64,000 nt of DNA from Candidatus Latescibacterota bacterium (GTDB lineage Bacteria; Latescibacterota; UBA2968; UBA8231), in the NCBI GenBank assembly GCA_965208105.1, contig OZ242318.1, positions 384,001-448,000 on the forward strand. Reading direction: 5' to 3'. A program made the position numbers and the translations under genes. Shown here piece by piece: positions 868-34,510 of this stretch. Numbering within the stretch: the first letter of the stretch is position 1; the number at the start of each line of letters is the position of its first letter. The notes under the pieces are model-generated. The model worked only from the letters and a program-made list of their open reading frames with translations. It searched no databases and was not told where the DNA came from.

Positions 868-923
868 ATCATTGGCACAAAATTCTTTATGAGAAATACC
901 TTATAATTTTTTGTAAATAAATC

Positions 924-12649: not shown

Positions 12650-15526
12650 ATGAGTGAAGGCTCTTACAATTTCCGTGAAATTGAGAAGCGATGGCGGAAC
12701 TACTGGCTGGAGGCCGGAACCTTCAAGACCTGCGGCCCCGGCGAGGAAGGATTCAACCCGGAGCAACCCAAATATTATATCCTGGATATGTTCCCCTACA
12801 CCAGTGGGTCGGGATTGCACATGGGCCACCCCAAAGGGTACATCGCCAGCGATATTTACTGTCGCTACAAGCGGATGTGCGGGTTTAACGTGTTGCATCC
12901 CATGGGGTTTGACAGCTTCGGCTTGCCGGCAGAGCAGTACGCCCGGGAGAATAACATTCATCCCTCGGTGGCTACCGAGCGCAACATCGAGACCATCCGC
13001 GGTCAGCTCCAGTTTCTGGGTATGGCCTACGACTGGAACCGGGAGATAGCCACCTCCAGGCGGAACTACTATTGCTGGACTCAGTGGATCTTTCACCAGA
13101 TCTTTTCTAGCTGGTTTGATGGGGACTGCAAGTGGAAGGACGCCAGCGGCCGGGAAAACAACGGTAAGGCAAGGCCCATCGCCGAGTTGATCGCGGCTTT
13201 TGCGACAGGGCAACGTGGCTTCAGCGAGGCTGACAAAAAAGTGCTGGGTGAAGACGCCAGAAATGGGTGGGAAGCCCTGGATGAAGGTCAGCAGGCTGCC
13301 GTGCTCAATAATTATCGCCTGGCCTATCAAAAGGAAGTGATGGTAAACTGGTGTCCCGCGCTGGGCACGGTTCTGGCCAACGAGGAGGTGACCAACGAGG
13401 GCAGGAGCGAGCGGGGGGATCATCCCGTCTACAGGAGGCCCTTGAGGCAGTGGATGATGAGGATTACGGACTACGCCGACCGCCTGCTGGAGGATCTGGA
13501 TGCACCCGCGTTGCCGGATGGCGGGAGAACCTTCAGGCTGGAGTGGCCCGAATCCATAAAACTCATGCAACGCAACTGGATCGGCCGCAGTGCGGGTACC
13601 GAGGTTTTGTTCGATGTCCTCGGGCCGGGCGGCCAGGAAGTGGCGGATGAGTTGAATGTATTCACCACCCGCCCGGATACCCTGTTCGGAGTCACCTTCA
13701 TGGTGGTTGCTCCACAGCATCCACTCGTCGTCCAGGGCAGCGGCCATTACCTGGTGCCGGGGGAATGGCCTGGGGACATTGACCCGCGATGGAAGGGGGC
13801 GGGTCCGGGCCAGGAAATCCGGCAGGCTGTGGCCGCCTACATTGAAGAAGGCAATATTGCCACGCAGCGGGAAAGCCAGGAAAAGACGGGAATCTTTTCA
13901 GGAATAATGGCGCGCAATCCCGTGAATGGCCGGATTATCCCGATCTTCGTGGGGGATTATGTCAGCATGGAATATGGCTCTGGTGCGATCATGGCCGTGC
14001 CGGCGCACGACGAGCGCGACTTCGAGTTTGCCTGCAAGTACGGCCTGGAGATCGTTCGCGTGGTAGAAGGGCCTGACGGCATCGATGATGAATGTTATGC
14101 CGGAGATGGGATATCGATTAATTCCCCTGCAGCAGGGAAGGGCAACTTTGCAATCAACAGCCTTACGACTCCTGAAGCTAAAGCCAAAATCGCTGCAGAC
14201 CTGGAGCGTGTGGGCAGGGGAAAGAGGGCGGTCAATTACAAGCTGAGGGACTGGATTTTTTCGCGGCAGTGGTACTGGGGAGAGCCCTTTCCCGTGGCGG
14301 AACGGCCCGAGGGATTTTCCGTTGCCACGGATATGCCCGTTTACCTGCCCGAGATGGAGGATTTTCAACCACACACCTCGGAAGATCCCAACCGCCCGGT
14401 GACGCCGCCGCTGAGCCGGGCAGGGGACGATTGGAGGAAGGTTTTGGTGCAGGGGGTGGAGTGCCGGCGTGAAATCAACGTCATGCCTCAATGGGCGGGG
14501 TCGTGCTGGTACTACTTGCGCTTTATTGATCCTTCAAACGACCAGGTGTTTTGCCAGGAAAGCAAGGAGAAGTACTTCATGCCGGTGGACCTCTACATCG
14601 GCGGCGCTGAACACGCGGTCCTGCATTTGCTCTACTCCCGCTTCTGGCACAAGGTCCTCTTCGATCTTGGACACGTTTCCTCAGCCGAACCATTCAAAAA
14701 GCTGTTCAACCAGGGGATGATTACCGCAGATGCCTTTGCCGATGAGCGCGGAGTCTACGTTGACATACGCGAGGTGGAGTTCCGCGAGGGCGAACCCTTC
14801 AACGCGAGGACCGGTGAAAAGCTGCAGCGCTTGGCCGGAAAGATGGGAAAGCGCTACAAGAACGGGCTGCCCCCGGAGGAGGTGGGGTATGAGTTCGGGG
14901 TGGATACCTTTCGGCTGTACGAGATGTACATGGGGCCTCTGGAGGCCAGCGCGCCGTGGAGCATGGAAGGAATCCGCGGAATGCAGCGGTTCCTGCAGCG
15001 GGTATGGCGCAATTTCGTCGACCAGGGAAGAAATGCAAAGAGGGGAGGCCAGCTGACCCCGGAGCTTGAAAAGATCTTACATAGAACAATTAAGAAAGTT
15101 TCAGAACATATTGCTGGACTGAGGCTTAACACATCGATATCCACCCTGATCGAATTCAATAACAAGTTGGTGCAACTAAGGTCTCTGCCCCCTGAGGTGA
15201 CGCGAAATTTTCTTCTGTTGCTGGCGCCGTTTGCCCCGCACATCGCTGAAGAGATTTGGGAAATCTGGGGATTTGGCAGAGGAGATATATCCAGCGCAAG
15301 GTGGCCGGAGGCCGATGACGAATTGACCAGGGAGGAAACGGTAACCTTGCCCATTCAGATCAACGGCAAGGTGAGAGGCAGTGTGGATGTCGCGGTCGAT
15401 ATTGAGGAAGATGATTTGCGCCGGATAGTGCTGGGGATGGAGAACATCAAGCGCCACGTTGCCGATGAGGCGAGTGTAAAGCGCTTCATTGTCGTGCCCG
15501 GGCGCATCGTGAATATCGTAGTTTGA
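12650..15526 (+). CDS. leuS: Leucine--tRNA ligase
   Basis: ATG at 12650 (MSEGSYNF); DMFPYTSGSGLHMGH (HIGH), FTTRPDT editing domain, KMGKR (KMSKS variant), QINGKVR. Confidence 0.97.
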   Translation: MSEGSYNFREIEKRWRNYWLEAGTFKTCGPGEEGFNPEQPKYYILDMFPYTSGSGLHMGHPKGYIASDIYCRYKRMCGFNVLHPMGFDSFGLPAEQYARENNIHPSVATERNIETIRGQLQFLGMAYDWNREIATSRRNYYCWTQWIFHQIFSSWFDGDCKWKDASGRENNGKARPIAELIAAFATGQRGFSEADKKVLGEDARNGWEALDEGQQAAVLNNYRLAYQKEVMVNWCPALGTVLANEEVTNEGRSERGDHPVYRRPLRQWMMRITDYADRLLEDLDAPALPDGGRTFRLEWPESIKLMQRNWIGRSAGTEVLFDVLGPGGQEVADELNVFTTRPDTLFGVTFMVVAPQHPLVVQGSGHYLVPGEWPGDIDPRWKGAGPGQEIRQAVAAYIEEGNIATQRESQEKTGIFSGIMARNPVNGRIIPIFVGDYVSMEYGSGAIMAVPAHDERDFEFACKYGLEIVRVVEGPDGIDDECYAGDGISINSPAAGKGNFAINSLTTPEAKAKIAADLERVGRGKRAVNYKLRDWIFSRQWYWGEPFPVAERPEGFSVATDMPVYLPEMEDFQPHTSEDPNRPVTPPLSRAGDDWRKVLVQGVECRREINVMPQWAGSCWYYLRFIDPSNDQVFCQESKEKYFMPVDLYIGGAEHAVLHLLYSRFWHKVLFDLGHVSSAEPFKKLFNQGMITADAFADERGVYVDIREVEFREGEPFNARTGEKLQRLAGKMGKRYKNGLPPEEVGYEFGVDTFRLYEMYMGPLEASAPWSMEGIRGMQRFLQRVWRNFVDQGRNAKRGGQLTPELEKILHRTIKKVSEHIAGLRLNTSISTLIEFNNKLVQLRSLPPEVTRNFLLLLAPFAPHIAEEIWEIWGFGRGDISSARWPEADDELTREETVTLPIQINGKVRGSVDVAVDIEEDDLRRIVLGMENIKRHVADEASVKRFIVVPGRIVNIVV

Positions 15527-15548: not shown

Positions 15549-15576
15549 TTGCCCCATAAGATAAATTATGTAAATA
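15549..15576 (+). other. dif-like Xer recombination site 1
   Basis: TTGCCCCATAA-GATAAA-TTATGTAAATA has 11-6-11 geometry; arms resemble E. coli dif (GGTGCGCATAA / TTATGTTAAAT) and the B. subtilis dif right arm (TTATGTAAACT). Confidence 0.7.
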
Positions 15577-15594
15577 TTCGGGCTTGCTCCCGTT

Positions 15595-16539
15595 TCAAGA
15601 CATCCGAATATAATCCGATGCGTTGTTCACCAGATTCTCGCGGTTCTCATAATATCGCATGGTGGTCTTCAAATCTTTGTGGCGAAGATGCGCCTGTACT
15701 TGCTGTGGCTTGGCGCCGCCCTCAATTGCCAGTGTGCAACAGGTATGGCGAAACATATGCGCGGTGATCTGGTGGGGAATCCCCGCCGTTTTCGCCCGCT
15801 TTTTGACAATTAAATTAATCGACTGATCGGTCAGTGGTTTGCCGTGAGACAGGTTGGGGGACAGACTGATAAATACCTTGCCATTCGCATCGTAGCCCTT
15901 TCTTTCCAAAATCTCCCTGTAATTGTTCAAGTAGTGGGCCACAACCGGTTGAAGTTTAATGACCTGGGGAACTCCGGCCTTTGTCGCGGGCAGGGTGAGA
16001 ATGTAAAATGCACCTTCCTGGCTGATATCGCCCCAGGACATTTGGGCGGCCTCTGAACGACGCAGTCCTCCATAGGTAAGCAAAAAAACTATGGCCGCGT
16101 CCCTGGCCCGGGCCAATTCGTTTTTATCTTTTTCGATGCTTTGGAGGATCTCCTGCAACACCTTCGTAGAAATAGCCTTGTTGCTGAGAGTGCCTTCGAT
16201 CCGATAGCCGCGGACCAAAGCAGAGTCGGCCGGATTGTTTTCGATGAAGCCAGCAGCAACCAACATCTTGAAAAAGCTTTTTAAGCTGGCGAGTTTGCGA
16301 TTGATGGTACTGCGCTTGAGGCCACTGGCGGCCAGGCCGTTGCGGAAGGAGATGACCTCAGCGAAGGTGACTGCGCGGACCGTTTCTATTGAAACGGCGT
16401 TTGTGCCGAAAAACTGGCAAAGGTCCGCGTGATAAGCCCGCTTGGTTCGCTCAGAGAGCTGGCCGGCGATGAATTGCGCCAGAGGGTCGTCTGGATTGAC
16501 CGGGTGGTTTTGGCGAACTGCCGTAAGGTTGGCTTCCAT
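15595..16539 (-). CDS. Tyrosine recombinase (Xer/integrase family)
   Basis: N-terminal core-binding domain (SERTKRAY...STINRKLASLKSFF); catalytic residues in GLRRSE, TKAG, HMFRH, HKD..TTMRY. Confidence 0.92.
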   Translation of the reverse strand: MEANLTAVRQNHPVNPDDPLAQFIAGQLSERTKRAYHADLCQFFGTNAVSIETVRAVTFAEVISFRNGLAASGLKRSTINRKLASLKSFFKMLVAAGFIENNPADSALVRGYRIEGTLSNKAISTKVLQEILQSIEKDKNELARARDAAIVFLLTYGGLRRSEAAQMSWGDISQEGAFYILTLPATKAGVPQVIKLQPVVAHYLNNYREILERKGYDANGKVFISLSPNLSHGKPLTDQSINLIVKKRAKTAGIPHQITAHMFRHTCCTLAIEGGAKPQQVQAHLRHKDLKTTMRYYENRENLVNNASDYIRMS

Positions 16540-16718
16540 GGCCTGAAATTCGGATGGGAAACTCCGGGTGTGATATTTCCAAATATAAAGGCAGGAGGCA
16601 AAGTTGTCATTAAAAACAGGAGTGGTCCCGAGTGGACCATGGATTCAGCCGGTAATTATCTAGAACAGGCATTATCAGTAGTTTGATTTTGCAGTGGCAG
16701 CCGGGGGAAATCAGCATT

Positions 16719-16746
16719 TGTTTACATAGTTTTTATTATGCGATCA
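16719..16746 (-). other. dif-like Xer recombination site 2, inverted relative to site 1
   Basis: The minus strand reads TGATCGCATAA-TAAAAA-CTATGTAAACA, an 11-6-11 site with XerC-like and XerD-like arms. Confidence 0.7.
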
Positions 16747-16761: not shown

Positions 16762-18573
16762 TCATGATCTGCCAAACATCCGATCCAACCTTTTTATTGG
16801 CACCTTCAGCATTATCGGCCTGCCATGGGGACACACAAAGGGTTCGCGGGCATTCAGAAGTTGGTGAATAATATTCTGCATCTCGTTTTCCGTGAGCTTT
16901 TGGCCGGCGCGGATGGAGGTGTGGCAGGCATAAGAGGCAGCCACTGCTTCCTGCAAGCTGTCCCTCTCTTCTTTTTCTTCCAGAAGTTCGTTGACGATTT
17001 TGTGGAAGATGTCTCCTTCTCCCCAGTCGGTCAAATTGCTTGGAATTGCATCGACAATTACTGTCCCGGGCCCAAAATCGCGGATCCCGAATCCCAATCT
17101 TTCAAATAACTCCCGCGCCTCCCGAATAACCTCCATTTCCAGGGCATTTGCATTGACTGTCAGAGGAAAGAGAAGTTGTTGGGAGGCAACCCCTTCCTCG
17201 GCAAAACACCGAAGAGCTTCCTCGTAGCGAATTCTCTCATGGGCTACGTGCTGGTCAATTATGACAACCCCATCCTCGATGGGTGAAAAAATATACTTTC
17301 TATGCAACTGCCAAAGCGCCGGAGCCGATTCGAGTTTTTTCAGGGAATTTAGATTGCTTTGCCCCTCCCGGCTGGTCCTTTCCAATCCCTCCGCCCCAAA
17401 ATCCGAAGGCTCCCGAAGAGATGGGGAGATCCGGTCAAGATGAGGCCGATCTTCTTTCGGATAATCAACTTCCAGGGTGTGAGCACCCTTCTCCTCTCCT
17501 GGAGGAAAGCTCATTCCCGGAGACTCCCCGATGGTGACGGGTTGATCCTCGGGCTCGTGTTGACGGTAAGACTGAAAACCGGTTTCAGGTCCATGTAGAG
17601 AACGCCGCACAGTCTCTTCTATGGCCTTGCTTACCCTTCTTTCATCGGCAAAGCGAACTTCCCTCTTTGTCGGATGTACGTTCACGTCGATCTTCCGCGG
17701 GTCCAGTTCGATCCATATTACGAAGGAAGGATGGCGGTCCCTGGGCAGCAATCCTCCATAACCTCGATAGACGGCCTGGCTGAGGGGACGGGAAGTTATC
17801 GGCCGTCCCCGCACGACCAGGAACTGCTTCGCCTTCGAACCTGTGCAAGCCGCCGGTAGGGAAAGAAATGCCTCGACGCCGATTCCATCATCATCTCCCC
17901 GGGCATGAAGCAGGGATTCGGCCGTGGGGCCCAATATTTCCTCCGCTCTCCCCTTTTGGCCGTTTGAAGCCGATAAATCGAGGATTTGCCGCTCTTCGTG
18001 TACCAGCCTGAATCCTGTCCGGGGATACGCTACAGCCAACCGCACCACAGCCTGGGTTATGTGGCGAGTTTCCGTTTCTATCCGCCGCAGGAATTTTCTC
18101 CGCGCCGGTGTGTTGAAGAAGATATTGCGCACCGACACAGTGGTACCTCGAGCCCGGCCGATTGAAACAGGGTCCCTGCGAATCCCTCCCTCGACAGCGA
18201 GGCGGGTGCCTTCCAGGGCTCCGGCTGCCCGTGTTTCGATGGTCATGCGGGAAATTGCGCCAATGCTGGCCAATGCCTCCCCTCTGAAACCCAGGGTGGC
18301 GATGGCGAACAGGTCAGAAGGAGAGGACAATTTGCTGGTGGAGTGGCGCTCAATGCATATTTCGAGGTCTTCCGGGGACATTCCCACCCCATCGTCCACA
18401 ATAGTTATGGACTGCCTGCCGCCTGCGACTACCTCGATGTGAACATGCCTGGCTTGTGCGTCGATGGCGTTCTCTACCAATTCCTTGACCACCGAAGCAG
18501 GCCTGTCGATTACTTCGCCCGCGGAGATTTTTTGAATCAAGTTTTCCGATAGTTTGTGAATTTTCACGGACAT
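16762..18573 (-). CDS. mutL: DNA mismatch repair endonuclease MutL
   Basis: ISAGEVIDRPASVVKELVENAIDA, GFRGEAL, DVNVHPTKREV, DQHVAHERIRYE, CPHGRP; alternative GTG start at 18588. Confidence 0.97.
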   Translation of the reverse strand: MSVKIHKLSENLIQKISAGEVIDRPASVVKELVENAIDAQARHVHIEVVAGGRQSITIVDDGVGMSPEDLEICIERHSTSKLSSPSDLFAIATLGFRGEALASIGAISRMTIETRAAGALEGTRLAVEGGIRRDPVSIGRARGTTVSVRNIFFNTPARRKFLRRIETETRHITQAVVRLAVAYPRTGFRLVHEERQILDLSASNGQKGRAEEILGPTAESLLHARGDDDGIGVEAFLSLPAACTGSKAKQFLVVRGRPITSRPLSQAVYRGYGGLLPRDRHPSFVIWIELDPRKIDVNVHPTKREVRFADERRVSKAIEETVRRSLHGPETGFQSYRQHEPEDQPVTIGESPGMSFPPGEEKGAHTLEVDYPKEDRPHLDRISPSLREPSDFGAEGLERTSREGQSNLNSLKKLESAPALWQLHRKYIFSPIEDGVVIIDQHVAHERIRYEEALRCFAEEGVASQQLLFPLTVNANALEMEVIREARELFERLGFGIRDFGPGTVIVDAIPSNLTDWGEGDIFHKIVNELLEEKEERDSLQEAVAASYACHTSIRAGQKLTENEMQNIIHQLLNAREPFVCPHGRPIMLKVPIKRLDRMFGRS

Positions 18574-18603
18574 TCGGCGAGACTCCACCTTAAAACGGGT
18601 GGT

Positions 18604-22941: not shown

Positions 22942-23469
22942 TCAATACCGGATGAGTGCTTCGACGCGAAATCCGTTCAAGTTCTGCCTGCCATTCAGAA
23001 ACTCCAATTCTACCAGGAAATTCAGTCCCACGACCTGGGCCCCGATTCGGTCCAGGAGCTGGCATGTAGCCCGGGCGGTACCTCCAGTAGCCAGCACGTC
23101 GTCGACCACCAGGACTCTCTGTCCCTTCCGAATGGCATCCTGGTGGATCTCGACGGCATTATTGCCATACTCGAGTTCGTACTCTTCACAAATTGTGGGA
23201 GCAGGCAATTTTCCCGCCTTGCGTATCGGCACGAAACCACATCCCAGTTCCACAGCCAGAGGGGCGGCCAGAATGAAGCCTCGCGCTTCAATGCCAGCGA
23301 CAAGGTCTATACGCGCGTCCGAGAAAGAGGCGAGCATGGCATCCACAGCCGTTCTGAGGCCCTTCCCGTCCTTGAGCAGGGTGGTAATATCCTTGAACCC
23401 GATTCCAGGTTTTGGAAAATCGGCAACTTCCCGTATTAGATCTTTAAGATAGGAAACAGAATCGGCCAA
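22942..23469 (-). CDS. apt: Adenine phosphoribosyltransferase
   Basis: DFPKPGI.FKDIT, GIEARGF, RKAGKLP, YELEYG, VVDDVLATGGT. Confidence 0.97.
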   Translation of the reverse strand: MADSVSYLKDLIREVADFPKPGIGFKDITTLLKDGKGLRTAVDAMLASFSDARIDLVAGIEARGFILAAPLAVELGCGFVPIRKAGKLPAPTICEEYELEYGNNAVEIHQDAIRKGQRVLVVDDVLATGGTARATCQLLDRIGAQVVGLNFLVELEFLNGRQNLNGFRVEALIRY

Positions 23470-23519
23470 GAGTCCCTGCTTGTTTGTGGCAAAGCCCCAG
23501 AAATTGATCGATCATCCTG

Positions 23520-23680
23520 ATGTCCCGCTGCAGAGACATGCCGCCATTTTCCGCCGGTCCATCCCGGGTCGCGGTGTTGTCATCACTCGCCGTGCATCAA
23601 TGGCAAGGCTCGCCTGGGCGACTGGTGAGCAGGCCGCCTCTGCGGTCCCATTTTGTCAACCAATCTCTGCTACGGGGCAC
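23520..23680. repeat. Diverged second copy of the 8927-9088 MITE (opposite orientation)
   Basis: Colinear over about 161 bp with the reverse complement of 8927-9088 (TGTCCCGCTGCAGAGA...CACTCGCCGT...GTCAACCAATCTCTGCTACGGGGCAC); decayed TIRs; flanks CTG/CAG. Confidence 0.8.
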
Positions 23681-23868
23681 CAGCCCTGATGGAAATCTAC
23701 GTCCTTCGTTCGATAGGATTTTGAATCCGCGCCATGGCCCAGGCACGGTCCACGGCGGCAGCCGGGGATCGATGCCATTGCCCTACCTTTTTGAAATATA
23801 GGAAGTTAGCAACTTCTGGCAAGTCTGGCCAGGCTGGCTCGTGCGGTCACCAGGAGAAGAGCATGATG

Positions 23869-25059
23869 CTAAATTTTTTTCAGAGCCTGGTCGATATCTG
23901 CGAGTAGCTCATCCTCATCTTCAATCCCTACCGCATACCGCACGAGTTCGTCCTTGATCCCGATGGCCAATCGTTCCTCCCTGCTCAGATCATAATATGA
24001 AACCGATGCCGGGTGAGAGACCAGGGTCTCAACTCCACCCAGGCTTGGGGCCAGGTAGGGAATCTTCAATGCATGAACGAAGTTCCGCGTGCGGTCCAGG
24101 TCACCGTCGATGTCGAAACTGACTACTCCACCATATCCGCCCATTTGCTCCTTGGCCACCTTGTGATCGGGATGGCTTTCAAGACCCGGATAGTATACTT
24201 GCTTCACCTTTTCGTGGTTTTCCAAATAGCGGGCGACTTTTTGCGCTGTCCTGTTTTGGCGGGCAACGCGCAAAGCCAGGGTTTTCATCCCCCTTATCAA
24301 TAGATAGGCCGCGTGGGGATCGACCACGGACCCCAGAACTCCTTGAAACTCCTTCAGAGCTTCTATGGTAGGGGTAGATCCGCAAACCGCGCCAGCCATA
24401 AGGTCATTATGTCCTCCCAGGTACTTGGTAGCGCTGTGGACAACCAGGTCGGCACCAAATTCCAAAGGTTTTTGGTTGATGGGCGTAGCGAAGGTGCTGT
24501 CGATGATCACCTTGAGCCGGTTCTTCCTCGCCCAGGGCACTAATTGCACGAGGTCGACGACGTGCAGGTGTGGATTGGTAGGTGATTCCGTCAGGAGAAT
24601 TCGGGTTTCGGGGCGAAGAGCAGCTTGCACTTCATCAAAGTCGCCGGGTTTCACAAAAGTGCTCTCAACACCGAACTTGCTGAAAATTTTGCAGAATTGA
24701 GTTGTCTTTCGATAGCAGTCTTCCATTACGATCAGATGCTGACCACTTCTCAGCATGGCCAACAACACAGTCGTTACCGCACTCATTCCAGTTGGAAACA
24801 AAAGGGCATCCTGCGCCCCTTCCAGCGCAGCGATTTTCAGTTCCGCTACCCTCTGGGTGGGATTGCCATACCTACCGTATTCGAAATGCCCCTTCTTCCC
24901 CGAGGATATATACGCCTCAACCTCGTCGAGGTCTTCGAATATGTAGGTTGCAGTCTGGGCGATGGGATTAACCAGGGACTTGGCGAACTTGATCCTATCC
25001 TCCCCACCGTGCACCGCCCGGGTGGATTGGCTGGCAGAGTTAGCTTTTTCACTACACAT
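23869..25059 (-). CDS. metB: Cystathionine gamma-synthase (Cys/Met PLP enzyme)
   Basis: [43 protein letters not shown]. Confidence 0.85.
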
Positions 25060-25099
25060 GAGAGTATCTTTCTATGATTCGCAATGAATGTTGAAAAGC

Positions 25100-26446
25100 C
25101 TATGCAAAATATTCATCGACAAGCCTCAACACGGCGCTTCGTACATTCTCGTAATGGGCATCCATTTCAAAAGGTTTGTTGGGATGGCGGGACTCGACCC
25201 CGTGCCCCCCGAGCTCTTTGCGGTGGTAGCTCGTCTTGAAGTCGGTGAATTTCAGCCCGTGGGCCGTCGAAACGACGATCACCTTGCTGTCCGCGGCGAT
25301 TACCTTCCTCTCAACTAACTTGAAAAGAGTGGCCAGGGCTACGCCGGTGTGCGGGCAAGTGAATAAGCCGGTACGGTCGGCAAGGGCAGATGCATTGGCG
25401 AGTTCATCCTCGGTAGCTTGCTCGACGACTCCATTGAACCTCCTCAGTGTCCTGATCGCCCGTTCCCAGCTTACCGGGGCCCCGATCTGAATAGCACTTG
25501 CCAGGGTAGAGCGGGCTTTCTGGGGTTCAAACCCCTCAAAGCCATTGAGGTAGCTCAGGTACAAGGGATTTGCATTGGCAGCCTGAGCCACAGCTATGCG
25601 TGGAAGGTGGTCTATAATTCCCATCTCCTCCATTTCCAGGAACCCTTTTCCAAGTGCGCTCACATTGCCCAGGTTCCCTCCGGGAATGACAATCCAATCC
25701 GGAACTTCCCAGTTGTCCTGTTGTTGTACCAACTCAATGGCAAGCGTCTTCTGCCCTTCGATCCTCAAAGAGTTCATCGAGTTCGCCAGGTAGATATTCT
25801 CTCTGTGGCTTATCTCAGTCGCCAGATTCATGCAGCCGTCGAAGTCCGTATTCAAAGACAGGGTCAGGGCGCCGTTAGCTATGGGCTGCACAAGCTGGTG
25901 CTGCGTTACCTTTTCTCTGGGAAGAAATACGATAGAGGGAATCCCTGCAGCAGCACAATAGGCGGCCAGTGCAGCAGAAGTGTCTCCGGTAGATGCACAG
26001 GCAACGGCCGGAATGTTCTGGCCATCCGCGATCATCTGCTTTACCATCGAGACCAGGACGGTCATACCCAGATCCTTGAACGAACCGGTATGGCTGTTGC
26101 CACACTGCTTGATCCACAGGTCTTCCATGCCGATCTGCCGTCCCAATCGCTCCGCCCAGAAAAGGTTGCTGCCTCCCTCTAAAATGGAAACCACGTTGTC
26201 ATTATCAACATGGGGACAGACCATTTCCTTCTTGCCCCAGACCGAGCTTCCATAGGGGTATTCCGTGCGCATATAACGCAGGTTGAATAGTTTTTTCCAG
26301 GAATCGGGAGGCTTCCTGCACAAAGCATTCATATCGTGACGCACCTCGAGGAGCCCCCTGCAATGCTTGCATTCGTAGACAACCTCGTCCAGGGGGTAGC
26401 GTTCGTCCTCACAACTCAGGCACTGGAACCAAGCCTTGTAGACCAT
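25100..26446 (-). CDS. thrC: Threonine synthase
   Basis: HTGSFKDLGMT (PLP lysine), CASTGDTSAA, RIEGQKT, PGGNLGN, STAHGLKF. Confidence 0.93.
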   Translation of the reverse strand: MVYKAWFQCLSCEDERYPLDEVVYECKHCRGLLEVRHDMNALCRKPPDSWKKLFNLRYMRTEYPYGSSVWGKKEMVCPHVDNDNVVSILEGGSNLFWAERLGRQIGMEDLWIKQCGNSHTGSFKDLGMTVLVSMVKQMIADGQNIPAVACASTGDTSAALAAYCAAAGIPSIVFLPREKVTQHQLVQPIANGALTLSLNTDFDGCMNLATEISHRENIYLANSMNSLRIEGQKTLAIELVQQQDNWEVPDWIVIPGGNLGNVSALGKGFLEMEEMGIIDHLPRIAVAQAANANPLYLSYLNGFEGFEPQKARSTLASAIQIGAPVSWERAIRTLRRFNGVVEQATEDELANASALADRTGLFTCPHTGVALATLFKLVERKVIAADSKVIVVSTAHGLKFTDFKTSYHRKELGGHGVESRHPNKPFEMDAHYENVRSAVLRLVDEYFA

Positions 26447-26636
26447 TTCCAATCCACAGGAGACCTTGCTGATCCAACCCCGTATTTCCAATGGGCCTGG
26501 CGGCGCTGGAGGAGGCGAGCAGCAAAGACATGGTATGCGCTACGAGCGACATTGCCTTCAGCATAGGGGCAGTATTCAACTTCAAACGCCGTTCAAAAAA
26601 TTTGGATGGAAAACAGGCTTCCTTGCCGCCACCAAC

Positions 26637-27200
26637 CTATTTTCTCCCGGGGGTCCAGATCCCATACAGGCGGCGCAATAAAATTTGCAACAGGAGAATG
26701 GTAATGATGGTCTCAGGAATGATATAACTGCCGTTATAGATCAGTGAATACAGCCATACTGGCTGGCCCGCCGGTGCGAGATGGCCGAAGAAGACCATGC
26801 CGGAAACAAAATGGGAACAAAACCTTGCCCCATTCCCAACGACCACTCCAAGGAGGATTCCCGCCCGCGTGCGGATGCTTGAAGAATTCTCCGGTCCAAG
26901 CCTTACAGCTGTCAACCCGGCAAGTCCCACGGCTCCAAATGCGACCGGGTAATCCAAAAGGACCTGGACGGGATGAAATAGAAAGGGACTGATCAGCAAT
27001 TCTGCCAAACCATAGATCGCACCGGCGGCGACACCTGCTTTCCATCCATGCCGAAAGGCAACGACGAATATGGGAAGCATGCGCAAGCTTATCGAGCCGC
27101 CGTATGGCAAGCGCGGAACCGGCAGCATCTTGGAGACCAAGTCCAGCACAATTGCAAGTGCAACCGCCATTGCCAACTCTGCAAGAAGTTGGATTCTCAT
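26637..27200 (-). CDS. thiT: ECF transporter S component ThiT (thiamine)
   Basis: LPYGGSISL.MLP, HPVQVLLDYPVAFG, HFVSGMVFF, WLYSLIYNGSY. Confidence 0.85.
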   Translation of the reverse strand: MRIQLLAELAMAVALAIVLDLVSKMLPVPRLPYGGSISLRMLPIFVVAFRHGWKAGVAAGAIYGLAELLISPFLFHPVQVLLDYPVAFGAVGLAGLTAVRLGPENSSSIRTRAGILLGVVVGNGARFCSHFVSGMVFFGHLAPAGQPVWLYSLIYNGSYIIPETIITILLLQILLRRLYGIWTPGRK

Positions 27201-27402
27201 TCAATGATTCAACGCCCCTGGTTGCGGATCAAATCCTCAGTTACGAATTTCCGTCAAATTCCGGGAGTCTTCAGATAGTTATCTTCCCTCCGGTACCCGG
27301 AACGACACCGGATCTTACCAGTGGACAAAGCGATGGTCGAAGGGCGGGTACTCCTTTCACCCATTCAAAGGGGATATGTTGCCTCGGTGAATTCGGCAAA
27401 AG

Positions 27403-28404
27403 CTAATTCATCCGCTGAATGATCATGAACCCCATTGACACCCGGACAATTTCGCTTATTTCACCCACCTGTAACTGCATAACGGCTGCTTCAAATTCCG
27501 ACATTAACTCTCCTGCTCCGAAAAAGTCGGTATCCCCTCCAAACTGGGCATTTGGTGCCAGGGAAAATTTCTGAGCAAGTGAACCAAAATCCTCCCCGCT
27601 TTCGATACGCTGCAGCAAATCCCTTGCAGCTGCCTGACTCTTGACCAGAATGTAGCGCGCCCGCACCTTCCCATCCATTATTGCCCTCACCGCCTCGATC
27701 TGGAGGTTGGTTGTGTGAGCTTCAAAGGCGTCCCCGGCCAGGTCTTTTGCGCGTTTGTAGTACTCGAGAGCCTGCCTGTATTGTCTTTGCCTGGCATGAA
27801 GAAAGGCAATGTTATTATGGGCTTCGAAGTCATTGGGCAAATAGTCCAGGATTTTCTCAAAATGCTTCCTGGCCGTATCGAAGGAATCGGCGTGGGTGAA
27901 GTAGAATCCGAGGAAGCGGTGGGCTTCGGGATTGCGCGTATCGATTCGGAGAGCGCTATCGAGATGGGCCTTGGCCTTGAGGTGCTCTCCGGCTTGAAGG
28001 TAGAGACCACCAAGCGAACTGTGAACCGCACCCGCATCCGGGGCAAGAACCAGGGCTTCCTTGACGTAGTGAATGGCCGAATCAAGCTTGCCGCTCGCCA
28101 GGTAAATTTCTCCCAAGCGGGAATAGACCGAAAGCTGGCCGGGCCTTTCCCTCAGTGATTTCCGGAAGGTGGTCACTGCCATGTTGAAGTTCTCGACCCT
28201 CAAATAGGCTTCCCCCAGGCGATTGAGGAATTGGGCGCTTCCGGCGCCAGCGGCCAGAGCCTTTTCATACTCTTCGATTGCCCTGTCCAGCTGACCCTGT
28301 GAAGCGAGCAGGTCCCCCTGCTGCACGTGCTTCAGGATTGATGATTCAGAAAATGCCGGGGCAAAGGCCAGGCATACCAAAAGAACAAAAAGAATGCTTC
28401 TCAT
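27403..28404 (-). CDS. Secreted TPR protein with C-terminal parvulin (PpiC) peptidyl-prolyl isomerase domain
   Basis: Signal peptide, several TPRs, then VRARYILVK...GEDFGSLAQKFS...GGD..FF...EFEAAV..LQVGEIS. Confidence 0.85.
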   Translation of the reverse strand: MRSILFVLLVCLAFAPAFSESSILKHVQQGDLLASQGQLDRAIEEYEKALAAGAGSAQFLNRLGEAYLRVENFNMAVTTFRKSLRERPGQLSVYSRLGEIYLASGKLDSAIHYVKEALVLAPDAGAVHSSLGGLYLQAGEHLKAKAHLDSALRIDTRNPEAHRFLGFYFTHADSFDTARKHFEKILDYLPNDFEAHNNIAFLHARQRQYRQALEYYKRAKDLAGDAFEAHTTNLQIEAVRAIMDGKVRARYILVKSQAAARDLLQRIESGEDFGSLAQKFSLAPNAQFGGDTDFFGAGELMSEFEAAVMQLQVGEISEIVRVSMGFMIIQRMN

Positions 28405-28410
28405 GTCTCC

Positions 28411-30117
28411 TCAGCTGCTTCCGAATATTTCCAGAAAGCGGTTTTCGGCTTCCACGCTGCCGATGAGTATCATTTCTCTACCTTGGGGCAGGGGCAGGGT
28501 CGGGTCAGGATTGATTTCCATTTGATCGCCATCGACGATCGCGATCACGGTACATCTGGTTTCCCTGCGAATTGATGAATTGGCCAAGCTCTTACCGACC
28601 AGGGAGGGAGGGATTTTTACCTTGAACACATCCAACCCTTCGTCCACCATCAGAATATCGCTGCGCTCGAGCAAATTGAAAATGGCGTTGGCTCCCATCG
28701 AGGCATATGACATGACGAAGTCCGCCCCGGCTCGATGAAGTGTCGAAACATTCCTTTCCAGTGTAGCCCGGCCGATGATTTGAATATCGGGCCTCAGGTG
28801 CCGGCAGTAAATCGTGAGGTAGATATTCGTCTCATCTTCGCGGGTCGTAATGAGCACTGTAGGGGCCTCAGTGATCCCTGCCTCCTTCAGAACCTCCAGG
28901 TCCGCCGCATTTCCTAGCAGGTACTTTTCAGTATTCTGAACGCGCTCCGGCAATTGCTCAACAATGAGGTAGTCAGTCCCCTGCTCCTCGAGAGTCCTGC
29001 CCGCTGCCCTGCCAACCCGGCCGCCGCCAATAATTATTACGGGAACATCAGAGGTATTGTCGGCGCGAAATTGCTGGTTGTAATTTTCCAGCTGGTTCTG
29101 GGAACCCGCCAGCACTAACATTGCACCCGGACCGACGAGAGTCTCGGGCCTGGCAGTTTTGAACTCCCCCCGTTCCCAGACCCCCACAACCGTCACTCCG
29201 ACTTTTCTGCGCAATCCGATTTCGGCGAGGGTCTGGCCGACAAGGGATGTCCCGGCCGCGGTGGCTTTGGCAATCAGGAGATGGCTGAATTGGCCTATCG
29301 GCCGTGCCGGGGCGCGGCCACCTCTTGCATGCCGCGCCAGAGATTGGCCCATCATCTCGCCCAGTTGGAGCACCCGGGAACAGCCTGCAAGTTCGAGGAT
29401 GTCCACAGAAGCAGGGTCCCGCGCGGTGGCGACGATTGGTACAGCTTCCGAGGTTTCTCGTACTGTAAATGCCAAACTGGTGTTGGTCGCGTCTGTGGAG
29501 GTCATGGCCACCAGTGCGGCCTTTTCTATCTGAACTTTGCGATAGGTTTCAGGATTGTCCAGGTCGCCGACCACCACCCTCAATCCCAGGTCGTACAGGC
29601 GCGACGCCTCCAATGGATCCGCAACCACCAAAACGTAAGGGTAACGGTACTGGGTTAATTTGTGAATCAAAGCACTTGTGACCGGATCGTAATACGTGAT
29701 CACAACATGGCCATGGGTGTCCTCGGAGAGTTTCCGGGGAATCCGGGAAGCGGACTGAGTTTCCATCCACGGCAAGTAGAAAAATTGAATGAATGTGAAA
29801 GGCAGAATGATCAGGATGAAGGCCACACCGGACAGGAGGACAACCATGGAGAACACACGACCCCAATCCTCAGTGAAGACAATATCTCCATATCCCAGGG
29901 TCGTCATGAGGGTCAGGGTCCAGTAGACCCCGGTAAACCAGCTGAAATCGCGCCCCTCATGAGCCATGAGAAGGTGAAAAAGGACGCTGTAAATACCCAC
30001 CAAAATGACCAAAGTCCCAAGCAACCAAAGCAATACCTTGAGTTTTTGGCGATTGGTGGGGTTGCGCGAAAAGCCGAGCAGATGGGGAACGAGATGTTTC
30101 ACGAGCTCGAACGGCAT
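28411..30117 (-). CDS. Potassium channel with TrkA-N/TrkA-C (RCK) domains
   Basis: TMs flanking the selectivity filter TTLGYGD; two Rossmann RCK domains (IIGGGRVG); alternative TTG start at 30153. Confidence 0.9.
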   Translation of the reverse strand: MPFELVKHLVPHLLGFSRNPTNRQKLKVLLWLLGTLVILVGIYSVLFHLLMAHEGRDFSWFTGVYWTLTLMTTLGYGDIVFTEDWGRVFSMVVLLSGVAFILIILPFTFIQFFYLPWMETQSASRIPRKLSEDTHGHVVITYYDPVTSALIHKLTQYRYPYVLVVADPLEASRLYDLGLRVVVGDLDNPETYRKVQIEKAALVAMTSTDATNTSLAFTVRETSEAVPIVATARDPASVDILELAGCSRVLQLGEMMGQSLARHARGGRAPARPIGQFSHLLIAKATAAGTSLVGQTLAEIGLRRKVGVTVVGVWERGEFKTARPETLVGPGAMLVLAGSQNQLENYNQQFRADNTSDVPVIIIGGGRVGRAAGRTLEEQGTDYLIVEQLPERVQNTEKYLLGNAADLEVLKEAGITEAPTVLITTREDETNIYLTIYCRHLRPDIQIIGRATLERNVSTLHRAGADFVMSYASMGANAIFNLLERSDILMVDEGLDVFKVKIPPSLVGKSLANSSIRRETRCTVIAIVDGDQMEINPDPTLPLPQGREMILIGSVEAENRFLEIFGSS

Positions 30118-30154
30118 CGATTGAGGGATGGAGTCCAGGGACGAGTCATGCAAT

Positions 30155-31102
30155 CTAACCTTTGGTCATCCATGGGGTTGTTGAGAGGATTTTGGATTGA
30201 GCTGGAAGACTTTGCACGCCGTTCAACTTGAAGATATTTCGAAAGACCAGGATCGAACCGCATGCTCCCGGAACCAGGACGTTGAGCGCAAAAATGAGGA
30301 TAGCCGAATTAAAGGCCGCAAGCGGATCAGCTTCGAGCATGCCGAGTACCAGCACGGCAGCCCCTTCGCGGACTCCCAGGTCCATGAAGCTTATGGGAAG
30401 AATGGACTTCAACCCAAAAATCACCGGGATTCCCCATAAGGCAATTCCAGGGACAGGTCCCCAGCTGCGAACCAGGATGTAGAACTGTGTGAAAAGGACC
30501 AGGTTGAAGAGAATTGACCAAGTCAACCCCCTTGCCCAAACTCCCCCGGGAGCTCGTTCGACCGCCTTCCAGACCCGGTGTATCCAACCATCCCCGCTCC
30601 CCGTCCCGGCCTTCGCTCCGGCCAAGGCCAAAATCACCAGTGATGCCAACAGGAGGACAAGACCAGGTTTGGCCCCGGGAAATATCACCCAAAGCCCCAC
30701 CCATGCCGCGGCAAGAGTTGCTGCCAGCGAACAGAGGCGGTCCACCCCTGCTGCCCCCACCCAGGTCGCGCGGTCTCCAACAAGAAATATCCCTCTTCCC
30801 AGCTCTCCCAATCGTCCCGGGGACACGAGGCCGAGGGCGAAACCAATCAGCAGGGAGTGCATCCCGTCCCCCCAGGTAGTCTGCGGACGATAGTGCCTGA
30901 GAAGCTGCTTCCATTTCACCCACTGTATTCCAAGTCCCAAGAGGGCAAGAAGCCCTGCCAAGGCTATCCACCCCGGGTCCATTTGTTTCCAGGCTTCCCA
31001 GAGACGGCCTGGCTTCAGATAGACCCCCAAGCTTCCCAGGAAGATGGCGGCAAGACCTATTTTCAGAATGGGAAGCCAGTGACCGGTTTGAAGAAGTTTC
31101 AC
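30155..31102 (-). CDS. Lysylphosphatidylglycerol synthase TM-domain (flippase-like, UPF0104) protein
   Basis: Multi-TM; KW..LL, PGRLGELGR, DRL, LPIS.MDLGVRE; start codon uncertain. Confidence 0.8.
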   Translation of the reverse strand: MKLLQTGHWLPILKIGLAAIFLGSLGVYLKPGRLWEAWKQMDPGWIALAGLLALLGLGIQWVKWKQLLRHYRPQTTWGDGMHSLLIGFALGLVSPGRLGELGRGIFLVGDRATWVGAAGVDRLCSLAATLAAAWVGLWVIFPGAKPGLVLLLASLVILALAGAKAGTGSGDGWIHRVWKAVERAPGGVWARGLTWSILFNLVLFTQFYILVRSWGPVPGIALWGIPVIFGLKSILPISFMDLGVREGAAVLVLGMLEADPLAAFNSAILIFALNVLVPGACGSILVFRNIFKLNGVQSLPAQSKILSTTPWMTKG

Positions 31103-31526
31103 AGGCAGGCTGCGGACGAGGGAATGAGGTGAGAGAGAAAGTCGCCGAAAAATCAGCGTAGAACACAGAAGATTCCCACCCGGCAAGCGCTCGTAAGGTA
31201 TAGCGGTCATGCGCTCTTCAGAGCACGAGCGAGAAGGCATCGAAAGCGGCAATGGAGGAGGGTGGACCCGCTCCCGCCTTACCAGACTGGAATGCCTCAA
31301 AAATTTGCTTCAGCCCGATGCTCCGTGGAACCAGAAGCATTAATGCGGCTAGGAAAAATAGATGGGAGCCTTTCCGAAGTCAAGCAATTACCTTCTTCCC
31401 TGTGAGTCGTCGGCTATCCGGCCTGGTCGCATGGGTAATGATTGCCAGGTTCCCCGTTCCATTCGCATCCGGTAATCCATTCAATTTCCAAGGGGAATGG
31501 ACAAAGGGAGATATCCAGACCGGGCC

Positions 31527-32618
31527 TCAGTCCCGAAAGAGGAAGGTGACCACATCTCCGTCCTGGACGATATAGTCTTTGCCTTCGGTGCGCAGTTTTC
31601 CTGCATCCTTCAGTCTTGCCAAACTGCCCGCAGATATCAAGTCTGCAGATGAAACTATTTCGGCGCGGATAAATCCGCGCTCCATGTCGCTGTGTATCCT
31701 GCCCGCCGCCCTGGACGCCTCCGTTCCCCTGGGCAACTGCCAGGCCTGGAGCTTGCGGTTTGCCACGGTGTAGAAGGTAATCAAATCGAGCAACTGGTAG
31801 CTGGCAAGAATGAGCCGCTCGATTCCATTGGCCTCCAATCCCAACTCGGCCGAAAATTCACCTCTTTCCCCGGCAGGAAGTTGCGCAATTTCGGCTTCGA
31901 GCTGGGCGGCGACGGGAAGCACCCTGCTCTTGCCTACTCGTTCTTCAAGAGGACCGATCTCCCCCTGCTCGACCTGGGTTGATTCTCCTTCGATATTGGC
32001 AACGTAGAGCACGGGTTTGGCGGTGAGAAAGCCGTAGCCCTGCAGGGATTCTTGTTCTTCCCGGCCGAGCCCAAGTGCGAAAACCGGAGTTCCCGCCCGC
32101 AGGCCTTCTAACACCTTTTCCAATGCTTCCCATGTCGGACGCTGCGAGGACCTCGGGTCTGTGCGCACGACCATTTCCAGCCGTGATTTGCTCCTTTCGA
32201 CGCTTTCGAGATCCGCCAGCATCAGTTCAGTCTCGATCGTATCCACGTCCCTGAGCGGATTGATTTCCCCATCCACGTGGGATACCTGCTGAGCGGCGAA
32301 ATATCGGACAACGTGCAGCAGGGCATCGGCCTCGCGCAAATGCCCGAGGAACTTGTTCCCCAGGCCTTCCCCTTTGCTGGCACCCCGCACCAGTCCTGCG
32401 ATATCGACAAACTGGATTGTGGTAGGAGTGGTACTGGAAGGCTGCAGGATCTGGGCCAGTCGCTGCAGGCGTGAATCTGGAACATCCACTACCCCGAAAT
32501 TGGGCTCGATTGTGCAGAAGGGGTAGTTTGACCCTTCTGCCGATCCTTCGGTCAACGCGTTGAAAAGGGTCGATTTTCCAGAATTCGGCAAGCCGATAAT
32601 GCCTAGACAAAGAGCCAT
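31527..32618 (-). CDS. ychF: Redox-regulated ATPase YchF
   Basis: [69 protein letters not shown]. Confidence 0.97.
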
Positions 32619-32667
32619 TATGTGCCGTTCCGATCAAGTCCTTTCTCTTTTCGACGAGGAACCATAT

Positions 32668-34398
32668 TCACCTGGCCTTTCTGGTTCCATCTCTCTCTTC
32701 GGGAAGCAGGCCAGGTTCGACCAGGAGGGTCTTTTCCCTTCTGATGGAGGCCGTACCCGGAGCACTTCCCCTGGGCTTCATAACATATTTCACCAGCGTA
32801 TAGACCACCGCCACCTTGCTGGAGGTCCTTCCCTTGCTCCAATAGGCGGCTACCCCCGCCGCTTCTTTCAGAGTTTGGGAGCCTGGTTCTTCGCGGCGGC
32901 CTTGCCGCCGCAGTATCACGTGGGATCCGGCATAGCCATGGGCGTGCAACCAGATGTCGTCCTTCGAGGCCATGCGATGGGTGAGCTGGTCGTTTTCCTT
33001 ATTGTTGCGGCCGGCCCAGACGCTCCAACCCGTTGCGGTGCAATAGCGCCGTGGATGGGCAAGGGGGTTTCTGCGGGCCTGCTTCCGTTCCTCCCGGCCT
33101 GCCACTCCATGCTCGTGCAGCCACCCTTCGATTTCGCCATGGTCCAAGTTCTTACCTTCTTCGAGTTCGAGCAGCAGCCTCCGGGTATTCCCGGCTTCCG
33201 ATTCGAGTTTTTGAAGGAAGTTTGGCAGGACCTGGCGCCGTCGCTGCAACTTCCTGGAGGTCTTTAAATACCACTTTCCGTTCTCTGCGGGCGAACGGCG
33301 CCGGTCGAGTTCGATAACCACCCGGGACCGGCCTGTAAGATCGAAAATGTCCGGCAACTCGACCTGGGAATATCCCTGCTTGACCGAGGATAGATGAGCC
33401 ATCAAAATGCTTCCCATCCTTTCCAGCTCCTCGGCACGGCCGGCTTCCTTCAGGTCCAGGCGAAGAGCATCGATTCTTTTCTCCATGCGCCTCAGTGCCA
33501 CCGTCAGACCTTTCTCGAGCCGTTGCTTTCGCCTCCTTTTTTCTTCGATCATGCGATCTTCGTTTTCCACCAGAATCAGAGCTTCGCTGATCGAAGAACA
33601 TTCTTTCCGCGCCCCGCCTTTGTGGGTGGGTTCGAGTGCAGAGAAAAACTTCCGGCATCCTTCCTGCCAAACGTATCCCCGCGGCGGTGGAACGGCACCG
33701 TAAAGTTCCCTGACCGCACCCCAGATCCTCGTCCATCTGAGACTGGTAATCTGGGCTGTAGTCTCATGTTCATTCAGGCCGAGGCGATGCAGGATTTCAG
33801 GTAGTATTTCATTGTCTATTCCCGCTAATATCCGTCCCAGGGCTGGCCCCACCTCATCATCTGGTTTCAACCTGGAAGAGAAGCTGGAAAAGGAGTCCTC
33901 TCCAGGTAAGATGCGGTCCTGGAGAGGAGGAGTTAGATAGGCCTTGCCAACGACGACACGGGCTTTTCCCCCTCTCCTCCTCCCTTCTCGGACCCATTTC
34001 CCCAGTACCGCGTTCGATTCCTCACTGATCAGCACGATCTGGACTCGGGACCGGATCAATTCACACACCAGTTGGCCATAGGTCGAGGATCCCGATCGGT
34101 TCCTTCGGACCAGCCTGACTCTGATAATACGGTCCCGCCTCTCCGCCCAGACGTCTTCAACGAAGGCGTTGCGCAGATAACGCTCAGGACCGCTTGATTC
34201 CCCCAATTCAGCGGGTAGCGGTCCCGGCAGATAGCAGAAATAGCCACCGGGACCGACCCGGGCATAGACATAACCGGATCGATCACGGGCAAACCCCACG
34301 CCCATGGCATCAGAACCCACCGCGGTAATCTTTTGGCCTTTTAAGTACTGGCGCACTTCACTCGCCAGTGCGCTGGTCGTAAAAAGGTCGAATGCCAT
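32668..34398 (-). CDS. rqcH: NFACT/RqcH ribosome quality control protein
   Basis: MAFD N-terminus, RDRII, coiled coil, GRNNKENDQLT, DIWLHA..YAGSHV, EAA.VAAYWSK. Confidence 0.85.
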   Translation of the reverse strand: MAFDLFTTSALASEVRQYLKGQKITAVGSDAMGVGFARDRSGYVYARVGPGGYFCYLPGPLPAELGESSGPERYLRNAFVEDVWAERRDRIIRVRLVRRNRSGSSTYGQLVCELIRSRVQIVLISEESNAVLGKWVREGRRRGGKARVVVGKAYLTPPLQDRILPGEDSFSSFSSRLKPDDEVGPALGRILAGIDNEILPEILHRLGLNEHETTAQITSLRWTRIWGAVRELYGAVPPPRGYVWQEGCRKFFSALEPTHKGGARKECSSISEALILVENEDRMIEEKRRRKQRLEKGLTVALRRMEKRIDALRLDLKEAGRAEELERMGSILMAHLSSVKQGYSQVELPDIFDLTGRSRVVIELDRRRSPAENGKWYLKTSRKLQRRRQVLPNFLQKLESEAGNTRRLLLELEEGKNLDHGEIEGWLHEHGVAGREERKQARRNPLAHPRRYCTATGWSVWAGRNNKENDQLTHRMASKDDIWLHAHGYAGSHVILRRQGRREEPGSQTLKEAAGVAAYWSKGRTSSKVAVVYTLVKYVMKPRGSAPGTASIRREKTLLVEPGLLPEERDGTRKAR

Positions 34399-34510
34399 GG
34401 AAATCGAGATGGATCAAATTTAAATGGTCTGCAGGCAGATGCCGTTTTGGCATCAATGATTGATTCTCGATCTGTTCCGGGGACTGTTCCGGGAAAGTGA
34501 AAGGACTTCG

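Follow-up and report, generated by a model that had tools for sequence, protein, structure and literature searches.

The DNA analysed here, referred to as the window, comprises 64,000 nucleotides (bases 384,001–448,000) of a single 4,846,116-bp contig with a GC content of 61.6% from a Candidatus Latescibacterota bacterium. Between leuS and mutL it carries a compact unit in which one Xer-like tyrosine recombinase gene, the sole open reading frame (ORF) of the unit, is enclosed by two inverted sites resembling dif. A first-pass annotation made from the letters alone had described this arrangement, and its anatomy proved exact to the base: both sites are 28 bp long with an 11-6-11 geometry, their XerD-like arms point inward, and their spacers are unequal, differing at two of six positions. 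The distances it gave are likewise correct—the left site lies 18 bp from the recombinase stop and 22 bp from the leuS stop, the right site 179 bp from the recombinase start and 15 bp from the mutL stop—and its naming of the two neighbours is backed by Pfam and NCBIfam. The features of the locus are as follows.

15549–15576, + strand: left dif-like site, TTGCCCCATAA-GATAAA-TTATGTAAATA, XerD-type arm inward; 34.5 bits, the top score of the genome
16719–16746, − strand: right dif-like site, TGATCGCATAA-TAAAAA-CTATGTAAACA, XerD-type arm inward; 27.5 bits, rank 2 in the genome
15595–16539, − strand: resident Xer-like tyrosine recombinase (P0001), 314 aa, with SAM-like N-terminal and Phage_integrase domains
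16582–16610, − strand: putative promoter-like element ATGACA-17-TATATT, matching the consensus at 10 of 12 positions, 43 bp upstream of the recombinase start
16654–16683, no strand assigned: lox-like 12-6-12 site, AATTATCTAGAA-CAGGCA-TTATCAGTAGTT as read on the + strand, a variant of the family palindrome
16623–16639, − strand: terminator-like hairpin followed by a T-run, a pattern match alone, between mutL (3′ side) and the recombinase promoter
12650–15526, + strand: leuS, leucine-tRNA ligase (Pfam; NCBIfam TIGR00396, 888 bits), reading toward the terminus
16762–18588, − strand: mutL (Pfam; NCBIfam TIGR00585, 489 bits), reading toward the terminus

The likely ATG of leuS is at 12650, the mechanical ORF start at 12473. 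The terminator-like hairpin is not kept in the related locus L010. The unit has a GC content of 52%, and that of the surrounding ±4 kb is also low (54.8% versus 61.6% genome-wide).

The unit coincides with the replication terminus as judged by cumulative GC skew, which in 1-kb bins peaks at 401 kb and is lowest at 2.98 Mb, the dif-like sites lying at 399,549–400,746. The core CATAA-N6-NTATGNAAA occurs exactly twice in the 4,846,116 bp, once in each of the two sites. A genome-wide scan with a dif position weight matrix (PWM), a step suggested in the first-pass annotation, sets both sites far above the rest, at 34.5 and 27.5 bits with the next-best position at 18.0. The matrix was built from 69 related sites, two of them from the window itself, and mostly from loci of the related genus g12, so that site counts in other genera are minimum figures. 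Both sites have the 28-bp 11-6-11 layout and the XerD-arm consensus of dif; the arms TTATGTAAATA and CTATGTAAACA match the arm TTATGTAAACT of sister families, and the skew switch is found at the locus both in the window genome and in genome G135. Copy number departs from the dif pattern of one site per chromosome, with two inverted copies here and up to six in g12. Among 8.9-kb loci, 37 of 46 have positive skew on the left flank and negative skew on the right, which lends weak support and is confounded by convergent genes and shared ancestry.

Comparison with relatives covers 56 related loci at 56–82% identity, and counts out of 57 include the window. A stop-proximal site, defined as a PWM score of at least 19 no more than 400 nt past the recombinase stop, is present in 39 of 57 loci, mostly 12–37 bp past the stop; of the other 18, the downstream sequence is missing in two, and inspection by eye shows divergent sites in several more. 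Thirty of 57 loci have an oppositely oriented site upstream, so that both XerD-type arms point inward; it lies either 150–500 bp before the recombinase, as in the window, or upstream of orf174–mutL, where the pair encloses about 3.5 kb. In some high-GC relatives and in G167 the inward-facing pair is tight, its inner arms being about 24 bp apart. The stop-proximal site of L027, about 35 bp beyond the stop codon, has a spacer of 7 bp (ATGTCTTATAA-AATGTTA-ATATGTAAACA), and no dif-like site was found at the stop-proximal position of L025; the sites of these two loci may have been inactivated. Two further loci, L012 and L127 (G102), lack the terminus-type leuS between asnS and the module, and the only leuS match in the G102 genome is 47% identical and about 675 kb away. 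The leuS segment, which in g12 lies between sites in direct repeat, may have been lost from these loci.

In sister families (eight genomes, four families) there is one site each, NNNNNGTATAA-GATAYA-TTATGTAAACT, with a local skew switch in 6/8 and leuS within a few kb in 7/8; no recombinase stands beside it in any of the eight genomes. Because these families have one dif near leuS without a recombinase, the terminus near leuS is old, whereas only the window's family has the doubled site and the resident recombinase. The comparison of the leuS–mutL junction that had been proposed from the sequence thus yields a single dif without a recombinase in the sister families and the full module in loci of the window's GTDB family, f1. 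The sister-family dif is adjoined in 6/8 genomes (loci L119–L126) by a gene for a protein of 140–230 aa with an N-terminal HTH_17 (excisionase/MerR-like) domain, for example L122:3283–3951 and L120:4072–4740, its 3′ end lying about 50 bp from dif where checked (L120, L122); this protein may be a dif-associated DNA-binding factor.

The resident recombinase has PF00589 (Phage_integrase, 93.6 bits) and PF02899 (SAM-like N-terminal, 47.3 bits) domains and thus the two-domain layout of the tyrosine recombinase superfamily. It also has the catalytic R-K-H-R-H/W-Y set, as R160, K187, H261, R264, H287 and Y296/297, which are invariant in 34/34 aligned resident recombinases. It scores below the cut-offs of XerC (TIGR02224, 126.4 bits against 335.15), XerD (TIGR02225, 120.1 against 329.6) and XerS (NF003462, 72.7 against 267). 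Its closest solved relatives are distant (expectation values of 1.5e-9 for XerD, 1.3e-8 for XerA and 2.6e-6 for XerH), and neither solved structures nor named homologues, which carry generic labels, provide a name more specific than Xer-like. The homologues form a tight family, all being at least 59% identical among the 120 matches listed, and the records of relatives are titled Candidatus Latescibacterota and in some cases Gemmatimonadota. Among the 168 genomes of the phylum that were searched, the gene is single-copy and present in 59 of the 75 other genomes of family f1; the 92 genomes outside the family gave one weak match of 34%. The best sequence match among solved chains is PDB chain 9i5v_14 (1.1e-15 over residues 68–297; 401 aa), which is labelled as the ribosome-associated inhibitor RaiA, a label at odds with its tyrosine-recombinase-like sequence.

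The search for separate xerC and xerD genes, also proposed at the outset, revealed further Xer proteins elsewhere in the genome. An XerD-like protein scores 317.6 bits (cut-off 329.6), a second XerC/D-like protein, referred to as XerC-like, about 260 bits, and the FtsK gamma domain is present at 103 bits. XerD orthologues occur in 74 of 76 family genomes. The XerC-like protein of the window genome has asparagine in place of the first histidine, that of HxxR, glutamine in place of a later histidine, and histidine in place of the catalytic tyrosine; its orthologue in the sister genome G107 has asparagine at the same HxxR histidine and phenylalanine at the catalytic tyrosine. In other genera all three catalytic residues are retained, and among the genera examined the decay is confined to g1, the window's genus. 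The paralogue (genome positions 2,155,326–2,156,285; L003/L066) is an intact ORF in both genomes of this genus, at 69% identity, and its persistence despite the loss of the tyrosine and two histidines suggests that it is retained for a non-catalytic role. Loss of XerC from genera g9, g10, g13, g14 and g16–g18 was considered and ruled out: the XerD and XerC-like genes lie at separate loci, in G167, for example, at 321 kb and 2.24 Mb.

Upstream of the resident recombinase gene, the family shares a lox-like palindrome, ACTAACGATAA-CAGGCA-TTATCGTTAGT. The copy in L029, ATACTAACGATAA-CAGGCA-TTATCGTTAGTAT, lies about 40 bp upstream of the promoter-like element TGACA-N17-TATATT of the recombinase gene, an element that, by eye, is conserved at the equivalent place in relatives. 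With up to three mismatches allowed in 14 specified positions, the palindrome is found within 1 kb upstream of the recombinase in 49 of 56 loci, as compared with nine matches in the remaining 404 kb of those loci (0.022 per kb); at zero mismatches it is unique in 400 kb of G135. It is absent from sister-family and rec2 loci, where only two 3-mismatch matches occur, both away from dif. With respect to the gene, its asymmetric spacer occurs either way round, as CAGGCA in 20 loci and as TGCCTG in 8. The window's version (16654–16683) carries a TTCTAG variant in one arm, common to L010 and L012, and may serve the resident recombinase as cognate site or as operator. Since the recombinase has a lox-like palindrome of its own, the dif-like sites are probably not its cognates.

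Family genomes scored as lacking the resident recombinase still hold a tyrosine recombinase in the slot. In G103 and G105 (genus g9) and in G167 this is a protein of about 310 aa that has a Cre-like HSLRVG...GRW...Y motif and 30% identity over 146 aa. The replacement enzyme also lies between inward-facing dif-like sites, the leuS-side site being degenerate in G103 and G105. Upstream of the G167 gene stands a different palindrome, GTTACTTGGTATAA-TATCCC-TTATAGAAAGTAAC. In this one clear case, therefore, the enzyme has been replaced and the palindrome differs, and the flanks remain dif-like.

The bracketed DNA has been inverted repeatedly. In genus g12 it occurs in two states (S+ and S−, sites on either strand; arrowheads, direction of reading).

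State A, 13 loci: hprK> orf267> S+ orf174> mutL> rec> S− <leuS
State B, 10 loci: leuS> S+ orf174> mutL> rec> S− <orf267 <hprK

On a 29-row IQ-TREE tree of the 3′ part of mutL plus the recombinase DNA, in which bootstrap support is not fully settled and two rows have long branches, at least seven changes of orientation are needed, at least four of them forced by the starred branches. Clustering of the states on the tree does not exceed that of shuffled labels (a count as low arose in 173 of 500 shuffles), and sister genomes only about 0.03–0.04 substitutions per site apart are in opposite states. The recombinase-only unit of L012 is inverted relative to that of the window. Homology of the flanks stops at the site, and the spacer and inner arm go with the segment. 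Within the central pair, 6 of 18 genomes have two identical spacers, and the similarity of the two spacers of one genome exceeds that of spacers from different genomes (permutation p about 0.003–0.006). For the window's species, assembled (Logan) contigs from four runs in three studies bridge both sites in the window's orientation only, including those of strains with 55 and 77 differences over 2.4–2.9 kb.

Genus g12 also shows the most elaborate form of the locus. In all seven complete g12 chromosomes examined (G128, G129, G132, G134, G135, G141 and G144), ATAA-N6-WTATGTMAA has five to six matches clustered within about 30–44 kb; G128 shows five array sites, three of the genomes each have one unrelated distant match, and the reversed pattern, used as a control, has zero or one. 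Sites on the same side of the recombinase share a strand, and the two sides use opposite strands, with every site facing inward; their spacing is conserved at about 17.3, 5.6, 3.5, 2.9 and 14.5 kb. In G135 the six array sites are the only PWM matches of at least 17 bits in 400 kb, and the skew peak at 420 kb (2-kb bins, 400-kb stretch) coincides with the site beside the recombinase stop. Each array site occupies a very tight junction between co-directional housekeeping genes and has its own spacer (GGATAA, CATATA-like and others); distinct spacers would be expected to bar recombination between sites, yet permit pairing with the sister copy. Two of the sites overlap translation starts (L029:7898–7925 and equivalents; G135 438,033–438,060): at leuS the GGATAA spacer forms the ribosome-binding site and the ATG within the inner arm TTATGTCAAC the start codon, and a second site plays this part for a 324-aa gene. 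The window genome and its sister G107 have the inner pair only, whereas G102 has an outer pair too. Two weak matches in the window genome (384,870 and 384,896; 18.0 and 17.6 bits) were considered as outer sites and rejected, having no junction homologous to a g12 site. They fall in AT-rich intergenic DNA (window positions 870–923), 26 bp apart on opposite strands, and are probably due to chance.

It seems moderately probable that the whole represents a composite locus at the terminus, made up of a doubled dif of XerCD type and, between its two copies, a module consisting of a resident recombinase and its site. Such a locus, situated at the replication terminus, would serve chromosome unlinking in one Latescibacterota family, with two inverted XerC/XerD-type dif sites enclosing a self-contained third Xer-like recombinase that has its own promoter and its own palindrome. 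XerD, together with the XerC-like protein where this is intact, would act at the dif-like sites, which are assigned to these proteins because their asymmetric pattern is the same as that of the single dif in families having only those proteins. The resident recombinase would act at its palindrome, and septal resolution of chromosome dimers would be open to either system. Since the XerC-like protein of the window's genus is without its catalytic tyrosine, dimer resolution there probably falls to the resident recombinase, alone or together with XerD; this catalytic decay fits redundancy of the two systems. Inversion would follow from the presence of two compatible sites in cis and be tolerated as a side effect. 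One of the two options raised by the first-pass annotation, a lineage-specific dimer-resolution system with a doubled site, comes close to this reading and to the evidence—the terminus position, the only dif-like sites of the genome and the family-wide occurrence—but did not include the recombinase's own palindrome, the inversions in relatives, the Xer and FtsK genes elsewhere in the genome or the nested g12 arrays.

Several observations weigh against this interpretation. The flipped form was not found in the window's species in four runs from three studies, represented by contigs that drop rare variants. Variants of the outer arm follow the segment rather than the flank (C at position 6 in five loci versus one, T at position 1 in two loci), a pattern not anticipated for exchange within the 6-bp centre, since such exchange should leave the outer arms with the flanks; these variants reflect either parallel changes or exchange at the outer edge of the 28-mers. 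The window's palindrome has a diverged arm with five mismatches in the 14-position core, so that it misses the 3-mismatch cut, and it may be only an operator. The assignment of proteins to sites is inferred, both binding and catalysis being predicted from sequence. The doubling has no demonstrated benefit, and two inverted dif sites would be expected to complicate dimer resolution, as stated in a study of Lactobacillus (PMC5345009).

A different division of roles, doubtful yet deserving serious attention, would have the resident recombinase work directly on the dif-like sites, alone or as a partner of XerD replacing XerC, with the palindrome serving as an autoregulatory operator. In most loci one dif-like site does follow the recombinase stop at a distance of 12–37 bp, sites are doubled or nested only in the presence of a resident recombinase, the catalytic tyrosine of the XerC-like protein is lost precisely in the window's genus, and a palindrome some 40 bp upstream of the promoter occupies a typical operator position. 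Against this, the asymmetric XerC/XerD arms match the single dif of sister families that have no such protein; a single protein species would be expected to target a symmetric palindrome. Moreover, replacement of the enzyme in G167 was accompanied by a new palindrome while the flanks stayed dif-like, and most genera retain an intact XerC-like protein plus XerD. Unlikely, by comparison, is a pdif-type mobile cassette, in which host XerCD would flip and exchange DNA between inverted Xer sites and the recombinase would be selfish cargo. The unit is indeed bounded by inverted sites with unequal spacers, as are pdif modules, its segment flips recurrently, whole 28-mers including the outer arms appear to travel with that segment, and the bracket of G103, G105 and G167 contains a distant recombinase with a Cre-like motif and about 30% identity. 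Mobility, however, finds no counterpart in the distribution of the gene, which is single-copy, always in the leuS/mutL terminus slot, present in 59 of 75 family genomes and without copies elsewhere in the window genome. The GC content of the unit (52%) is low, but so is that of its ±4-kb surroundings, and in g12 the bracket holds the housekeeping gene mutL. The other option of the first-pass annotation, a minimal mobile unit with the recombinase as cargo, is therefore weakly supported at best, the gene being single-copy, vertically inherited and restricted to one slot. These features make recent mobility of a pdif-like unit unlikely, although the replaced cargo shows that exchange occurs over long time scales.

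The inward-facing sites could also be regarded as polar barriers or bookends centred on the recombinase, acting as a fork trap or FtsK stop instead of, or besides, recombining; we consider this very unlikely. Support comes from the g12 arrays, in which 7/7 complete chromosomes have five to six opposed polar sites within about 30–44 kb at conserved spacing, and the outer pair of G102 adds to it. A gene beside the innermost site is a hallmark of the two known fork traps and counts for the barrier interpretation too, as does the lack of any Tus or RTP homologue in the genome (PF05472 and PF02334, with positive controls in E. coli and B. subtilis). Conversely, the window genome and G107 have the inner pair only, the sites clearly recombine, and the protein retains its full catalytic set. 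Hardly more probable is the related proposal that inward dif-type sites, each with its own spacer, are terminus-organising bookends that would stop FtsK or forks around the recombinase and its lox-like site. If true, bookends of this kind would confine sister unlinking to a protected central segment and would add to the Tus/Ter and RTP/Ter traps a third type of independent evolutionary origin; we know of no terminator protein in this phylum. Barely credible, finally, is phase variation of mutL or the recombinase, in which inversion would switch the gene between on and off states and yield a reversible mutator. In g12, mutL does lie within the invertible segment, but inversion leaves the connection between promoter and gene unaltered, as the segment is directly downstream of a co-directional operon in both states (orf267 in A, leuS in B); the recombinase has its own promoter-like element within the segment, and in the window mutL is outside the bracket.

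The composite terminus locus favoured here shares features with several known systems. Tus/Ter of E. coli and RTP/Ter of B. subtilis consist of opposed groups of polar sites flanking the terminus, with the gene for the binding protein at the innermost site. The g12 arrays of opposed inward sites resemble them; unlike these traps, the Latescibacterota locus is built from dif-type recombinogenic sites, has no Tus or RTP homologue and is reduced to the inner pair in the window genome. In Cre/loxP of phage P1 a recombinase gene lies near a 13-spacer-13 palindrome that resolves dimers, and the system can substitute for XerCD/dif at the E. coli terminus. Here too a gene has a palindrome nearby, and the replacement recombinase of g9 and G167 shares the Cre-like motif, but the spacer is 6 bp, the position is the chromosomal terminus, the protein is distant and dif-type sites enclose the module on both sides. 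Single-recombinase dimer-resolution modules are represented by XerS/difSL of streptococci and lactococci, and also by XerH/difH and archaeal XerA/dif; according to a review, the XerS gene adjoins the terminus site and forms one module with it (PMC5357621). The Latescibacterota locus likewise has an Xer-like gene beside a terminus site. It differs in the presence of XerD and an XerC-like protein as additional Xer genes of the genome, in the doubled, inverted dif-like site and separate palindrome, in a spacer of 6 rather than 11 bp and in its low XerS score (72.7 bits versus the cut-off of 267).

The pdif modules of Acinetobacter plasmids have inverted Xer sites of unlike central regions as their boundaries and are reported to undergo inversion and module exchange. 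The boundaries of the present unit are of the same kind, but it is vertically inherited at a fixed chromosomal terminus, and its cargo is the recombinase, or mutL plus the recombinase, rather than accessory or resistance genes. Elements known as IMEX (integrative mobile elements exploiting Xer), such as CTX phage and the gonococcal genetic island, are foreign DNA at dif with two dif-type flanks, according to the same review (PMC5357621). Their flanks are direct repeats, allowing excision, whereas those at the present locus are inverted. An inverted dif pair at a terminus is known from Lactobacillus delbrueckii ssp. bulgaricus, where two putative dif sites of opposite orientation are described as unexpected, the doubling being a by-product of a decaying 47.5-kb inverted duplication (PMC5345009). 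Unlike that case, the Latescibacterota locus repeats only the 28-bp sites, conserves them family-wide and encloses a recombinase gene. In a literature search of limited coverage, neither a short inverted dif pair enclosing a recombinase gene nor nested dif arrays were encountered, and no Xer work on Latescibacterota came up; the layout as a whole was not found described for any known chromosome-unlinking system.

Xer/dif is the textbook case of one site per chromosome, whereas here a whole bacterial family keeps an inverted pair or nested array at its terminus, tolerates flipping and adds a third recombinase with a site. If the proposed division of labour holds, the family would provide an example of natural redundancy between two dimer-resolution systems, and replacement may be in progress, which is the route thought to have led to single-recombinase systems of the XerS and XerH type. 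The locus also offers heterospecific dif sites and a new pair of recombinase and site.

Two observations concern the wider genome. Window positions 22,945–36,754 correspond to G135 411,571–441,990 in such a way that orthologues lying beyond the outermost leuS-side site of G135 sit on the mutL side in the window genome; a larger inversion across the terminus would give this position, the junctions not being clean. At genome positions 2,061,438–2,062,187 (L002), a 250-aa ORF resembles an integron integrase (TIGR02249, 210.8 bits; cut-off 265) and looks N-terminally truncated.

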